A stretch of DNA of 64,000 nucleotides, taken from positions 14,249-78,248 of the forward strand of contig JAQVJM010000002.1 of the NCBI GenBank assembly GCA_028695135.1, in the 5' to 3' direction. This DNA is from Candidatus Moraniibacteriota bacterium (GTDB lineage: Bacteria; Patescibacteriota; Minisyncoccia; Moranbacterales; UBA9337). A program made the position numbers and the translations under genes. This document shows, in pieces, positions 35,881 to 37,938 of this stretch. Every line of letters begins with the position of its first letter. Within the stretch, counting starts at the first letter, position 1. The notes below the pieces were generated by a model. That model did no database searches. It saw nothing but the letters and a program-made list of their open reading frames with translations, and was not told the DNA's origin.

Positions 35881-36012
35881 AAAATCCGAAATTTAAAATC
35901 CGAAATCCTAAACAATTTTAAAGTCCAAATAATTTAAATTTAAAAACTTTTTAAATTTAGAATTTGGAAAATTTTAATTTATTTAGAAATTGATGCTTTG
36001 AATTTCGAATTT
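35881..36012 (+). repeat. 23S intervening sequence IVS1 (AT-rich hairpin element family) in the helix 9/10 hairpin loop
   Basis: Interrupts the loop of stem CCGTACATAGCACAG/CCGTGTTGTGTGCGG; begins AAAATCCGAAATTTAAAATCCGAAATCCTAAACAAT, ends ...GAATTTCGAATTTC; internally self-complementary. Confidence 0.7.
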
Positions 36013-36492
36013 CCGTGTTGTGTGCGGTTACTATTATCTGAATTCATAGGATAATGGAGCAAACCCAGTGAACTGAAACATCTTAGTAGCTGGAGGAATA
36101 GAAATCAATAGAGATTCCGCAAGTAGTGGCGAGCGAACGCGGAACAGTCTAAAACTCGTCGCCCTCGGGCGACGGGTGGTTGCGAGATAATTGTACTCGT
36201 TTAATCGGGATTGCCTCATATTTTTTAGCAGAACGTTCTGGAAAGAACGGCCAAAGGAAGTAATAGCCTTGTATGCGAAAAAAAATATGAAGCGATGAAA
36301 TTATTCTCAAGTAAGGCGGGACCGGAGAAATCCCGTCTGAATCCGGGAGCACTAACTTCCAAGACTAAATATTACACGAGATCGATAGTGAACAAGTACC
36401 GTGAGGGAAAGGTGAAAAGCATCCCGATAAGGGAGATGAAATAGTATCTGAAACCATATGTTAACAAGGAGTCAGAGCCGTACGTAGTACGG

Positions 36493-36623
36493 AAATCCGA
36501 ATATTAAAATCCGAAATCCGAAACAATATCAAAATTCGAATTGCAAAAATTCAAAAAAATTTTGAATTTAGAATTTTGAAAATTATGATTTGTTTAGAAT
36601 TTCGTGTTTAGAGTTTAGAATTT
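36493..36623 (+). repeat. 23S intervening sequence IVS2 (same family) in the helix 25 loop
   Basis: Interrupts stem GCCGTACGTAGTACGG/CCGCACTGCGCACGGC; begins AAATCCGAATATTAAAATCCGAAATCCGAAACAAT. Confidence 0.7.
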
Positions 36624-37817
36624 CCGCACTGCGCACGGCGATGGCGTGCTTTTTGCAGAACGAGCCAACGAGTTAGTTTTATACGGCTTGCATAAATTAC
36701 TCTGTAAGATATGCATAGTGAAAGCGAGGCTTAACCGCCGATTTTGTCGTATGGACTAGACCCGAATCCAGGCGAGCTACGCATGGGCAGGGCGAACCCC
36801 GAGTAACATCGGGGGGAGGCCCGCACCCACTGATCGTTCGACATCAGGGGATGACCTGTGCGTAGGGGAGAAATTCCAATCGAGCTTGGCTATAGCTGGT
36901 TCTCTCCGAAATAGCTTTGGGGCTAGCGTTCGTTAAATGAGCGCGGGAGGTAGAGCTACTGGATGAGTGTTCGCGGTTCGCCGTAGAACACTCAACCAAA
37001 CTCCGAATTCTTGCGTTTCTTATTCGAGCAGTCAGAAATCCGGCTCTAAGGTCGGATCTCAAAAGGGAAAAAGCCCAGACCATAATCTAAGGTCCCTAAA
37101 TTCATATTAAGTGGCAAAGGAAGTAGAGTTTCTTAAACACCTAGTAGGTTGGCTTAGAAGCAGCCATCCTTTAAAGAGTGCGTAATAGCTCACTAGCTTA
37201 GAGACTTTGCGCCGAAGATGTAACGGGGCTAAATATGATACCGAAGATATGGACCTGTCGCTCTCGAGCGACGGGTGGTAGGAGAGCGTTCTCTGTGAGC
37301 CGAAGCCAAAGGCGTGAGCCATGGTGGATCGCAGAGAAGTGAGAATGTTGGCATGAGTAACCGCAATGTGAGTGAGATCCTCACACCCCGAAAGTTCAAG
37401 GTTTCCTGGGCAATGGCAATCATCCCAGGGTTAGTCGGTCCTAAGGCGAGGCTGAAAGGCGTAGTCGATGGACATACGGTTAATATTCCGTGACTATGAT
37501 TACAATCGATGGAGTGACGCATTTTAGTAACTGTCGCATGTTATTGGATTCATGTAGGTTTTCTGAGGATGTATAGCAGGCAAATCCGTTATACATTAAG
37601 TCCAAGGAAAATCTGGACGCTTCTCTTCGGAGGAGCTAACGACAGCCAGCAGAGTGCCAGGAAAAACTTCTAAGATTATTGTTTTCATATCCGTACCGCA
37701 AACCGACACAGGTGAACAGGGCGAGTAGCCTAAGGGGAACGGGAGAACCTTCGCTAAGGAACTCGGCAAAAAATCTAGACGTAAGTTCGCGAGATGTCTT
37801 GCCAGTGCTTAGCACTA

Positions 37818-37938
37818 AAAATTCGAAATCCGAATATCGAAATCCGAAACAATATCAAAATTCAAATAATTAAGGGCCGTTTTGAATTTAAAAAATTTGA
37901 AAATTATAATTTGTTTTGAGTTTCGTATTTTGATATTC
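37818..37938 (+). repeat. 23S intervening sequence IVS3 (same family) in a domain IV variable helix (helix 63 region)
   Basis: Begins AAAATTCGAAATCCGAATATCGAAATCCGAAACAATATCAAAATTCAAAT; ends ...TTTTGAGTTTCGTATTTTGATATT. Confidence 0.65.

Follow-up and report, generated by a model that had tools for sequence, protein, structure and literature searches.

A dispersed palindromic repeat family with copies at helix tips of a Patescibacteria 23S rRNA gene and in intergenic DNA of other bacterial phyla

Intervening sequences excised from 23S rRNA by RNase III are known from helices H25 and H45 in Salmonella, from Leptospira and Campylobacter, from H45 in Coxiella and from H9 in Rhizobiales. Short palindromic repeats of other kinds, the REP, BIME and REPIN sequences and the MITEs of the Correia/NEMIS and ERIC types, are found in Proteobacteria, and RNase III cleaves the hairpins that Correia elements form once transcribed. 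The Rickettsia palindromic elements (RPEs), reportedly described by Ogata and colleagues in 2000, are said to be palindromic repeats of ~100-150 bp. REP, RPE and Correia-type elements are lineage-specific. The GC clusters of yeast mitochondria are small mobile palindromes found in variable rRNA regions and in frame in ORFs. Helices of the large subunit rRNA of eukaryotes and Asgard archaea also bear expansion segments, with ES7 at H25, ES27 at H63, ES31 at H79 and ES39 at H98. Bacterial 23S rRNA intervening sequences are reviewed in PMC4990558 and PMC8708148, REP diversity is covered in PMC3686654 and the mobile GC-cluster palindromes of yeast mitochondria are the subject of PMC4478555.

Bacteria of the candidate phyla radiation (CPR) stand out by the insertions in their rRNA genes. 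The rRNA introns and homing endonucleases of the CPR have been catalogued (Tsurumaki et al. 2024, PMC11270868), and insertions in CPR rRNA genes also appear in Brown et al. 2015, to the extent that this work is cited in PMC11270868. According to PMC11270868, which covers 1,346 CPR rRNA insertions, such insertions are removed from transcripts. The same study found short insertions without ORFs in CPR 23S genes at sites of RNase III intervening sequences, left them uncharacterised and classed them as 'uncharacterised, probably IVS'; the terms hairpin, palindrome and repeat are absent from its text. The DNA analysed here, referred to as the window, is a stretch of 64,000 nucleotides from a Candidatus Moranbacteria genome (Patescibacteria).

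Three related hairpins in one 23S rRNA gene

The 23S rRNA gene of the window (35735-39456, plus strand; Rfam LSU_rRNA_bacteria, 2451.9 bits, model positions 1-2925) is 3722 nt long compared with the 2925 positions of the model, and a 5S gene lies downstream (39574-39685). Three inserts in this gene, with a GC content of 17-23% against 40% for the window, are members of one homologous repeat family. Homology was assessed with nhmmer, using one profile built from the three inserts and another built from 50 copies in other genomes, and a 22-mer (AAAATCCGAAATCCKAAACAAT) occurs three times in the window compared with an expected 0.01 in dinucleotide-preserving shuffles.

The first copy (core 35881-36012, plus strand) is part of a rod of 164 nt (35865-36028) that follows E. 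coli position 132 in the apical loop of H9, and was detected with E values of 1e-29 (three-insert profile) and 2e-19 (external profile). Rfam shows it as an insertion of 150 nt into the loop of the hairpin that spans model positions ~127-150, with which a MAFFT alignment against E. coli agrees, and its basal clamp is GCCGUACAUAGCACAG / CCGUGUUGUGUGCGGU. The minimum free energy structure has 60 nested pairs, including 7 G.U pairs, and folding of the sense strand yields -51.4 kcal/mol compared with -42.0 kcal/mol for the antisense strand. The second copy (core 36493-36623, plus strand; E values of 1e-33 and 4.5e-26) belongs to a rod of 163 nt (36477-36639) in the apical loop of H25, at E. coli positions 539-552, where Rfam places an insert following model position 583; its clamp is GCCGUACGUAGUACGG / CCGCACUGCGCACGGC. 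The third copy (core 37818-37944, plus strand; E values of 1e-29 and 4e-21) lies in a rod of 162 nt (37801-37962) in the apical loop of H63, near E. coli position ~1731. Here the Rfam insert is 137 nt long and occupies the terminal loop of the model hairpin 1749-1777, and the sense strand again folds better than the antisense strand (-55.5 versus -42.4 kcal/mol).

Each insert replaces the loop of a variable helix with a single long imperfect hairpin (z of -3.4 to -5.2 against shuffled sequences). The predicted rods comprise 60-71 nested pairs, well beyond the >20 bp of intervening-sequence stems, and are continuous with the host helix. Their basal stems are richer in GC and are alike between sites (CCGTACATAGCACAG/CCGTGTTGTGTGCGG and CCGTACGTAGTACGG/CCGCACTGCGCACGG). 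A preliminary description of this DNA had proposed that the three inserts are one repeat family, that they sit in apical loops of the 23S rRNA and that they might fold into long stems of the RNase III type; the nhmmer homology and 22-mer counts, the alignments to Rfam and E. coli, which identify the classical intervening-sequence and expansion sites H9, H25 and H63, and the folding results agree with these proposals. The units are longer than it had claimed, since the GC-richer basal stems belong to them and extend the rods to ~160 nt. The insert sequences are identical in contigs of four further records (two NCBI and two ENA assemblies), each of which spans at least one insert, and an assembly artefact can therefore be excluded.

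The inserts resemble classical intervening sequences, which lie in H9, H25 and H45, extend a helix with a long stem, often lack an ORF, occur sporadically and are thought to be horizontally acquired. Classical intervening sequences are, however, usually found within the rRNA genes of one lineage, whereas this element has many copies outside rRNA, ~14 sites in 16S and 23S and a distribution over several phyla.

Anatomy, dispersal and putative mobility of the element

The element is a non-coding imperfect palindrome of ~130-170 nt (range 103-228 nt, median 146). Its arms are arrays of heptamers, AAATCCG in one arm and CGAATTT in the other; between them lie a GAAACAAT/ATTTGTTTC centre, which is conserved, and a tip, which varies. 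As in MITEs, there are terminal inverted repeats, formed by arms of ~35 nt (AAATCCGAAGCACGAAATCCGAAATCCGAAACAAT and ATTTGTTTCGAATTTCGATATTCGAATTTCGAATT). The arms pair imperfectly, each heptamer containing one C.A or G.U, and each arm carries a distinct conserved 'special' heptamer, AAGCACG on the left and CGATATT on the right. Compensatory changes between the arms, from CCGAA/TTCGA to CCTAA/TTAGA (the same pair is GC 37 times and UA 8 times), indicate that the stem is kept. RNAalifold, applied to the profile strand of 57 copies, recovered the central 8-bp stem alone, because the outer heptamers pair with C.A on that strand. Rfam searches at the gathering threshold and at E<=1 yielded no family for the element, only chance matches of the microRNA type, and a literature search gave no record of its motif or of its read-through peptides (SEIRNPK, FRISDF and others).

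A 21-mer of the 5' arm has matches in at least 120 stretches, from MAGs whose labels cover more than ten phyla, including Planctomycetota, Verrucomicrobiota, Desulfobacterota, Patescibacteria, Chloroflexota, Pseudomonadota and Bacteroidota, the labels of the contigs being those of the submitters. Several of these matches lie on contigs of 0.3-2.5 Mb; two archaeal matches sit on short contigs and may be mis-binned. The full-length profile gave 139 matches at 111 loci. The element is small, non-coding, dispersed and multi-copy, as expected of a MITE, with at least 120 stretches in each of two scans. For only 34 of 93 copies does the nearest relative (70-97% identity) fall in the same labelled phylum. 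A scan of viral contigs gave three matches, at least one of which looks bacterial since its contig carries an Acido-Lenti-1 RNA, and a plasmid collection gave none, although a low-complexity filter may hide some there.

The copies in other phyla are mostly intergenic and occur in both orientations. Among 51 copies outside rRNA, 43 lie between co-directional genes (orientations 24:19), where they usually fill most of the spacer; the adjoining genes are unrelated housekeeping genes. Density reaches four copies in 6.7 kb, and on some contigs almost every spacer contains one. Occurrence is patchy even among close relatives, with no copies in 12-21 kb of each of four related Moranbacteria. Near-identical strains have identical inserts, and in the next relatives (GatB 78-82% identical) the 23S does not adjoin gatB; no pair of empty and filled orthologous sites was recovered.

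Across phyla with genomic GC of 35-72% the arms are 75-90% identical, which suggests that the enzyme mobilising the element is very widely shared or else that some interaction of the element is conserved. The GC content of the element follows that of the host (rho 0.68), favouring long residence over recent transfer. This tracking leaves the conservation of the arms between phyla without explanation.

Sequence signatures of transposition were sought around the copies. Target-site duplications of 3 bp or more were not found, the longest flanking direct repeats having a mean of 4.13 nt compared with 4.17 nt for shuffled pairs, and no target or flank motif is conserved beyond chance. A duplication of 1-2 bp such as TA is compatible with the element, the ends of which are runs of A and T. 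Clustering of 851 neighbouring ORFs gave two-component and housekeeping families only and no linked transposase, 120 loci contained neither an arm-ORF-arm composite nor a protein family that recurs among the neighbours, and the genes seen beside the copies did not include a RAYT. One near-identical pair of copies within a genome (L036/L091) shares a unit of 317 nt, which exceeds the element and leaves its ends undefined; another pair (L015/L039) places the ends near TAAAT...ATTTA with no clear duplication. The MITE label is therefore one of analogy, given that a transposase, a duplication of at least 3 bp and a conserved target motif were all looked for and not found. Readings of the element as attC-like, as an IS200/IS605-like end or as tRNA-like (four-way junction) were discounted on the basis of its anatomy, their defining motifs or partners being absent.

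The preliminary description had expected copies outside rRNA, which the 21-mer matches bear out, and had suggested an active element or one that targets hairpin loops. Outside rRNA, the flanks of a copy pair with each other no better than sequences paired at random (-6.0 versus -6.2 kcal/mol), and insertion into host hairpins there was rejected. Nothing shows activity in this genome: the three window copies are 70-77% identical, and copies from other phyla are as close to them as they are to one another.

Further copies in protein genes had also been proposed. The window contains one, a partial copy limited to the 5' arm, which lies in frame in gatB (30567-30624, plus strand; ORF 30242-31765) and includes the exact 22-mer at 30580-30601; full elements in protein genes were not found, the copies there being partial 5'-arm remnants only (gatB and gatA). 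The gatB remnant (E = 9e-11, profile positions 3-69) does not fold by itself (z -0.17) and encodes ...EIRNSKSEILNNNQIQNSNIQTKK..., ~14 extra loop residues that face a 14-residue gap in Thermotoga maritima GatB (3al0_B). The closest orthologues are without this insert, which is present in more distant ones. A weak profile match in enolase (51916-51963) is a doubtful heptamer run and was not counted as a copy because there is no net insertion. Apparent full copies inside long ORFs, one of them likely antisense in a GC-rich genome, were also set aside, as the ORFs concerned lack any Pfam match and are probably not genuine.

Like REP, Correia and ERIC sequences, the element is a short palindrome that lies between the genes of operons, is transcribed together with them and reaches many copies in a genome. 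It differs from them in its heptamer-array arms, in the absence of any RAYT seen and in not being specific to a lineage, and neither a TA duplication nor an IHF site has been shown; its consensus lacks a GTAG-type core, so that it does not qualify as a REP/REPIN unit, which is 20-40 nt long, begins with a conserved motif of the GTAG type and is paired into inverted doublets. RPEs reportedly resemble it in being inserted in frame in protein genes, where they are tolerated in surface loops, and in occurring in RNA genes as well. Compared by description, RPEs are known only from Rickettsia, and their copies in ORFs are often full-length, whereas this element is cross-phylum and mostly intergenic with partial remnants in protein genes, none of which contains a full palindrome in frame. 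The yeast GC clusters are GC-rich, organellar, eukaryotic and unrelated in sequence.

Copies in rRNA genes of Patescibacteria

In the genome scan, rRNA copies were found in Patescibacteria loci only, at H9, H25, H45, H63, H68 and H98. A motif combining clamp and core was found at least 137 times in the metagenome scan and, of these instances, 112 are in rRNA (94 in 23S and 18 in 16S). The metagenome rRNA copies occupy ~14 distinct sites, including H9, H25, H45, H63, H68, H79 and H98 of the 23S and H6 and H44 of the 16S.

All 112 clamp-bearing rRNA copies are in the rRNA-sense orientation, and a purely random DNA insertion model must therefore invoke selection. The sense strand folds better in 14 of 16 rRNA copies (p = 1.5e-4) and, in the metagenome set, in 101 of 111, with an advantage of ~-12 kcal/mol, whereas intergenic copies show no folding strand bias (20:22). 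This difference would be expected of selfish DNA that was reshaped by RNA-level selection after landing in a structural RNA gene. The orientation of the core profile within rRNA is mixed (42:69).

The short ORF-less insertions of PMC11270868 come from the same group of hosts as this element, fall in its size class (<200 bp) and occupy its sites, and the two are very probably the same objects. New here are the identity of the family, the clamps, the strand bias and the copies outside rRNA and across phyla. Judged from the sequence matches, the element probably accounts for many of the unexplained short rRNA insertions in the CPR, and the family is a major coloniser of CPR rRNA genes, a role that the preliminary description had missed. 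A single dispersed repeat as their source would give these insertions an origin. Its searchable signature could be used to correct rRNA gene models and to design primers and probes, and would allow precise prediction of the points at which CPR rRNA is fragmented.

Origin and fate of the rRNA copies

The explanation that we favour, and consider fairly probable, is that the family is a selfish palindrome of the REP/MITE kind whose rRNA copies behave as intervening sequences and are probably removed by RNase III. The family would be a non-autonomous DNA element, mobilised by an enzyme acting in trans, which is dispersed and fills spacers in either orientation. In Patescibacteria, copies would also have landed in rRNA genes, where an insertion would persist only if it lies at the tip of a surface helix, since a hairpin that enters a loop does no more than make the helix longer; the survival of only such insertions explains the loop positions better than loop targeting does. 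The GC-rich basal clamps of the rRNA copies, together with G.U pairs accumulated on the rRNA-sense strand, would give a stable rod of 55-70 bp in the pre-rRNA. The rods are predicted to form long double-stranded stems of the kind that is a substrate of RNase III, which would remove them without religation while the clamp holds the 23S pieces together. Fragmentation of the window 23S is plausible on this model, and would occur at H9, H25, H63 and probably H79.

A broader reading, which we put forward as possible rather than probable, joins these results into one conserved palindrome that has spread through at least 10 bacterial phyla and that, in the CPR, would be a dedicated rRNA module (core plus GC clamps, always sense and tuned to fold in the transcript) making up a large share of the short 16S and 23S insertions. 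Such a module might either program the fragmentation of rRNA at the tips of a dozen helices or serve as an expansion segment of bacteria. It might be moved by an enzyme that is very widely shared, or else through RNA.

The family and its insertion history would be the same if the rods were retained as bacterial expansion segments, with no excision by RNase III and an intact 23S; we regard this as rather doubtful. Retention is equally compatible with the sequence. All the occupied sites are solvent-side helices which bear expansion segments in eukaryotes and archaea (H25, H63, H79 and H98), those of eukaryotes and Asgard archaea having identical attachment points on the ribosome surface, and stabilisation of the sense strand suits a structure that is retained just as well as one that is processed. 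Expansion segments, however, are retained and lineage-conserved parts of rRNA, not copies of a dispersed repeat. AU-rich stems of 55-70 bp are textbook substrates of RNase III, and up to three or four rods per gene, in addition to the copies at H44 and H6 of the 16S, would be bulky for a ribosome described as reduced. Removal is also the fate reported for CPR insertions, and PMC11270868 takes the short ones at these sites for intervening sequences of the RNase III type.

The conservation of the arms between phyla, while GC drifts with the host, could instead reflect a function in every host, for example as a hairpin that stabilises or processes mRNA or as a protein-binding site. The differing special heptamers would suit sequence-specific recognition, and the copies are placed precisely in operon spacers. 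We consider such a function unlikely, since the two orientations are about equal with no folding bias towards the transcribed strand, the neighbours are unrelated housekeeping genes and occurrence is patchy among close relatives, as in the four Moranbacteria; the conserved arms could equally be binding sites of a transposase.

If the rRNA subfamily spread as RNA instead of by DNA transposition, with the hairpin RNA integrating into rRNA before reverse transcription and recombination, this would account for the uniform sense orientation of the clamp-bearing copies, for stems optimised for the sense transcript and for the same type of clamp at many helices in both 16S and 23S. The preliminary description had named an RNA-level selfish element as one of two possibilities, an idea disfavoured by the lack of any ribozyme, intron or other Rfam match and by intergenic copies in both orientations without a folding bias. 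No reverse transcriptase was found near the copies, the core profile is mixed in orientation within rRNA, and selection for G.U rather than C.A pairs explains the strand bias more simply, so that this route seems very improbable. A last reading, in which the inserts arose within the 23S as expansions native to this lineage and resemble one another and other sequences through low-complexity convergence, is hardly credible: AT-rich, heptamer-built sequence does inflate chance similarity, but the 22-mer is seen three times where shuffles give 0.01, full-length profile E values range from 1e-19 to 1e-33, more than 100 loci carry the asymmetric arm signatures, and the same element recurs at the ~14 rRNA sites as well as between genes in GC-rich genomes.

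Two further insertions lie in the same 23S gene. The first, outside the hairpin family, is an ORF-less group I intron of 259 nt with exact ends at 38908-39166, after E. coli position 2593; it scores 54.1 bits with RF00028 (gathering score 50) and occupies a known 23S intron site. The second is a fourth long hairpin (38403-38535, plus strand), in which 112 nt are inserted into the terminal loop of H79 (Rfam model hairpin 2226-2250), with a minimum free energy of -43.9 kcal/mol and 43 nested pairs. In nhmmer searches it had no match to the family profiles and is thus of an unrelated sequence family. The H79 insert is an instance of the same phenomenon, a hairpin at a helix tip, arising from a second sequence family.

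Insertions carried by the 23S rRNA gene

The bacterial 23S rRNA gene, identified with Rfam at 35735-39456 on the forward strand, is 3722 nt long against 2925 positions of the model and is followed by a 5S rRNA gene at 39574-39685 (Rfam). No 16S gene was found by Rfam in the 64-kb window, including the 35 kb upstream of the 23S start at 35735, so the rRNA genes appear unlinked. Extra sequence in the 23S was located by MAFFT alignment to E. coli rrlH. It includes three AT-rich inserts with cores at 35881-36012 (insert 1, ~148 nt after E. coli position 132), 36493-36623 (insert 2, ~147 nt at E. 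coli 539-552) and 37818-37944 (insert 3, about 117-137 nt around E. coli 1731 by MAFFT and Rfam). As the preliminary description had proposed, they form one homologous family: a profile built from the three finds each with E-values of 1e-30 to 1e-33, a 50-copy profile from other genomes recovers them at 2e-19 to 4.5e-26, and the 22-mer singled out earlier occurs three times in the window against 0.01 expected from dinucleotide-preserving shuffles. Their GC content is 17-23%, that of the window 40%.

The claim that the inserts occupy helix terminal loops was borne out by the Rfam structure lines and the alignment to E. coli. Insert 1 lies in the loop of the hairpin at Rfam model positions ~127-150 (H9), insert 2 is found at the apex of the helix that ends with model position 583 (H25), and the 137 nt of insert 3 occupy the terminal loop of the model hairpin 1749-1777 (H63). 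The anticipated long stems were also found, each insert folding as one long imperfect hairpin (z -3.4 to -5.2). The inserted units extend beyond the bounds first given and include GC-richer basal stems (clamps). These are alike between sites (CCGTACATAGCACAG/CCGTGTTGTGTGCGG at H9; CCGTACGTAGTACGG/CCGCACTGCGCACGG at H25), and core and clamps together are predicted to fold into rods of 60-71 nested pairs at 35865-36028, 36477-36639 and 37801-37962. The inserts recur without any difference in contigs of four further records (two NCBI and two ENA assemblies, each with at least one insert), which excludes assembly error.

The same 23S contains other extra sequence. A 44-nt GC-rich hairpin (36159-36202) lies at E. 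coli ~277 by MAFFT, a region that is a frequent site of clamp-bearing copies in other CPR 23S genes (~15 of the 94 metagenome instances listed for 23S). A fourth long hairpin (rod 38403-38535) is formed by a 110-112-nt insert in the terminal loop of H79 (E. coli ~2212; MAFFT, Rfam and folding) and belongs to an unrelated sequence family (AGTATAAAGTAGCAAGTATAAAGTA...). It is weakly similar to an intergenic stretch at 58457-58536, and there may thus be a second repeat family with both rRNA and non-rRNA copies. Rfam also matched an ORF-less group I intron of 259 nt (38908-39166, after E. coli 2593; 54.1 bits), the ends of which are exact, since a chimeric contig (L123) joins another organism's intron-less 23S at precisely this point.

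Distribution and genomic setting of the family

The query AAATCCGAAATCCKAAACAAT, run against one genome per GTDB species, matched at least 120 stretches, where an estimated ~0.5 chance matches are expected for a pattern of this size. The MAG labels of the matches listed include Planctomycetota, Verrucomicrobiota, Desulfobacterota, Patescibacteria, Chloroflexota, Pseudomonadota, Bacteroidota/Ignavibacteria, Actinomycetes, WOR-3, Omnitrophota, Zixibacteria and Aminicenantes, plus two archaea. Since contigs of 0.3-2.5 Mb account for several of the matches, the breadth across bacteria is independent of binning; archaeal occurrence (two matches, both on short contigs) is uncertain. The three-insert profile gave 139 non-overlapping matches, mostly full-length, in 111 of the listed loci, with element lengths of 103-228 nt (median 146) among the matches listed.

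In the consensus, a variable tip separates the 5' arm, AAATCCGAA(GCACG/ATTCG/TATCG)AAATCCGAAATCCGAAACAAT, from the 3' arm, ATTTGTTTCGAATTTCGATATTCGAATTTCGAATT. Both arms are made of arrayed heptamers. On the profile strand each heptamer pairs with one C.A mismatch, which becomes a G.U wobble on the other strand, and the different conserved 'special' heptamers on the two arms give the element polarity. Patescibacterial copies often have CCTAA for CCGAA together with TTAGA for TTCGA. This amounts to a double compensatory substitution, with 37 sequences having GC and 8 having UA at the pair reported by RNAalifold.

The cross-phylum distribution is dispersed. Among the matches listed, copies do not cluster by phylum, and for only 34/93 is the nearest relative, typically 75-89% identical, in the same labelled phylum; arm identity across phyla is 75-90%. 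The GC content of the element increases with that of the host (rho 0.68), from 0.26 in hosts below 40% GC to 0.41 in hosts above 60%, which argues for a long residence, with the arms under constraint, and against a very recent transfer. No Rfam family matches the element, nor was a match found in a plasmid collection, where the low-complexity filter may hide some. Viral contigs gave only three matches. In one catalogued viral contig (L128) an Acido-Lenti-1 RNA (L128:7983-8029) adjoins a copy, and three copies lie in operon spacers; this contig looks bacterial rather than viral.

Neighbours could be assigned for 51 full-length non-rRNA copies among the matches listed; 43 of these have co-directional genes on both sides, often 0-60 nt from the upstream stop and 10-60 nt from the next start, and occur in both orientations (24:19). 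Two contigs have three or four copies apiece, in intergenic spacers. Neighbouring genes are unrelated housekeeping and signalling genes, no conserved motif was found in the flanks, flank complementarity does not exceed that of random pairs (-6.0 versus -6.2 kcal/mol) and no arm-ORF-arm composite occurs among the loci listed. Based on position, density, flanks, neighbours, relatedness and composition, the element outside rRNA is best likened to a non-autonomous REP/MITE-like repeat, the mobilising enzyme apparently not being encoded alongside. Flanking direct repeats equal the control level, leaving no detectable target-site duplication of the MITE kind, and the GTAG-type core of REPs is absent, so the element is filed as a member of neither class. 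It resembles REP/Correia-type repeats in genomic behaviour, Rickettsia palindromic elements in its occasional in-frame remnants and yeast mitochondrial GC clusters, reportedly small palindromes that land in rRNA variable regions, in doing likewise.

In the complete deltaproteobacterial chromosome CP070704.1 the element lies inside a 317-nt unit repeated at 95% identity (L036:3184-3500 and L091:3925-4241). An outer inverted repeat (CTAGTATCATGTCCC / GGGACGTAACACTAG) belongs to the unit itself, making it a palindromic element that is either nested or composite. Six Desulfobacterota loci (L012, L051, L066, L078, L082 and L104) have common flanks, with TTTGGCAATTCAACA ~45 nt upstream and TCCCCGTCTYTGATAAG downstream; the shared sequence is either that of an orthologous spacer or part of a larger unit conserved around the element.

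Copies in rRNA genes and their strand-specific folding

Among the genome-scan matches listed, all rRNA-borne copies are from Patescibacteria loci, where they occupy H9, H25, H45, H63, H68 and H98, and many share the GC-rich clamps CCTTGTGCnnnGCACAAGG (5' side) and CCTCGCGCnnnGCGCGAGG (3' side, rRNA sense). A metagenome scan with the clamp-core junction TTGTGCNNNGCACAAGGAAAT returned at least 120 stretches (loci L136-L255) with at least 137 instances. By flank BLAST to E. coli rRNA, 94 of the 137 instances listed are in 23S (extreme 5' end, H9, ~270-290, H25, H45/46, ~1410-1590, H63, H68, H76-79 and H98) and 18 in 16S (H6, ~446-507, H44 apex and 3' end). In these listed instances the clamp-bearing rRNA copies are in rRNA-sense orientation without exception (112/112), the profile orientation of the core is mixed (42:69) and the rods have a median length of 167 nt. 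In 60/109 cases the 3' clamp forms a perfect local palindrome, which allows either a rod or a four-way junction as the fold.

When folded with their clamps, rRNA-borne copies are more stable in the sense than in the antisense strand in 14/16 cases (mean -12.6 kcal/mol, Wilcoxon p = 1.5e-4). The independent metagenome set gives 101/111 listed instances with the sense strand more stable (mean -12.0 kcal/mol), among them 33/38 copies not chosen through the strand-specific motif. Intergenic copies between co-directional genes have no such bias (20 versus 22, mean -0.5 kcal/mol), so the element itself has no preference as to the transcribed strand. In rRNA, by contrast, copies have been filtered or reshaped for a stem in the transcript, largely via G.U pairs. 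This stabilisation of the predicted folds is the strongest evidence that the hairpins matter as RNA in the rRNA context.

The element would spread as DNA through an enzyme supplied in trans, and in rRNA genes only insertions at the tips of surface helices would survive. The transcribed rods would be cut out by RNase III without religation while the GC clamp kept the rRNA pieces together, and in function they would resemble the intervening sequences known classically from H9, H25 and H45. Indirect literature support for this excision comes from PMC11270868, in which removal of CPR rRNA insertions from transcripts is reported and the short ORF-less insertions at such sites are taken, as a guess, for RNase III intervening sequences. 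The main rival is that the rods are retained in the ribosome as expansion segments. An RNA-level route, which the preliminary description had favoured alongside a MITE and which the uniform sense orientation of clamp-bearing copies would suggest, is disfavoured, because the element has no ribozyme signature, the intergenic copies behave otherwise and selection for the orientation giving G.U rather than C.A pairs is a simpler account. It is almost certain that the inserts correspond to what PMC11270868 describes in CPR rRNA genes as 'uncharacterised short insertions'; the text of that paper makes no mention of hairpins, palindromes or repeats, and a literature search found no paper on the element motif or its peptide read-throughs.

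Remnants in protein genes and neighbouring features

Further copies had been described in protein genes. One clear case is present in the window, in gatB, and it is a remnant of the 5' arm (30567-30624; profile positions 3-69, E 9e-11) rather than a full element. Alone it does not fold; it is read in frame as EIRNSKSEILNNNQIQNSNIQTKK, a 14-residue insertion relative to T. maritima GatB (3al0_B). Source records label the window GatB (30242-31765) Candidatus Moranbacteria, and its relatives are Moranbacteria or Parcubacteria; the window accordingly belongs to a CPR/Patescibacteria genome. The insert is absent from the closest orthologues (82% identity; GKLKINGKEIG) and recognisable in more distant Moranbacteria and Parcubacteria proteins. 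It is therefore either an old insert that was lost repeatedly or one that arose more than once at this loop. Another GatB orthologue (P0006; alignment A3 columns 115-160) has a different insert at the same loop, SRSQISDFSSTNTLQKKSTFQNDKKGDALN, containing ISDF, a peptide motif from the opposite strand of the element, hinting that a separate insertion took place here in the reverse orientation. The gatA of another MAG has a similar in-frame remnant, KNPKSEIRNPKQSQNSK. Apparent full copies inside long ORFs were set aside, as these ORFs have no Pfam match and are likely spurious.

In the enolase ORF (51509-52771) a run of five AAAATTC heptamers (51916-51963), read KFKIQNSKFKI, is similar to the element's inner part (nhmmer E 0.037). 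Compared with E. coli enolase there is presumably no net gain or loss of length, and the run may be either coincidental or a remnant. An inverted repeat at 22077-22176 (31-nt arms, 84% complementary, 38 nt apart) is unrelated in sequence to the family. Just downstream of gatB is a free-standing 78-residue GIY-YIG ORF (~31876-32112, reverse strand), and upstream are two adjacent Thy1 (ThyX) paralogues (26678-27661 and 27777-29141, forward strand), in place of which relatives have ThyA plus DHFR.
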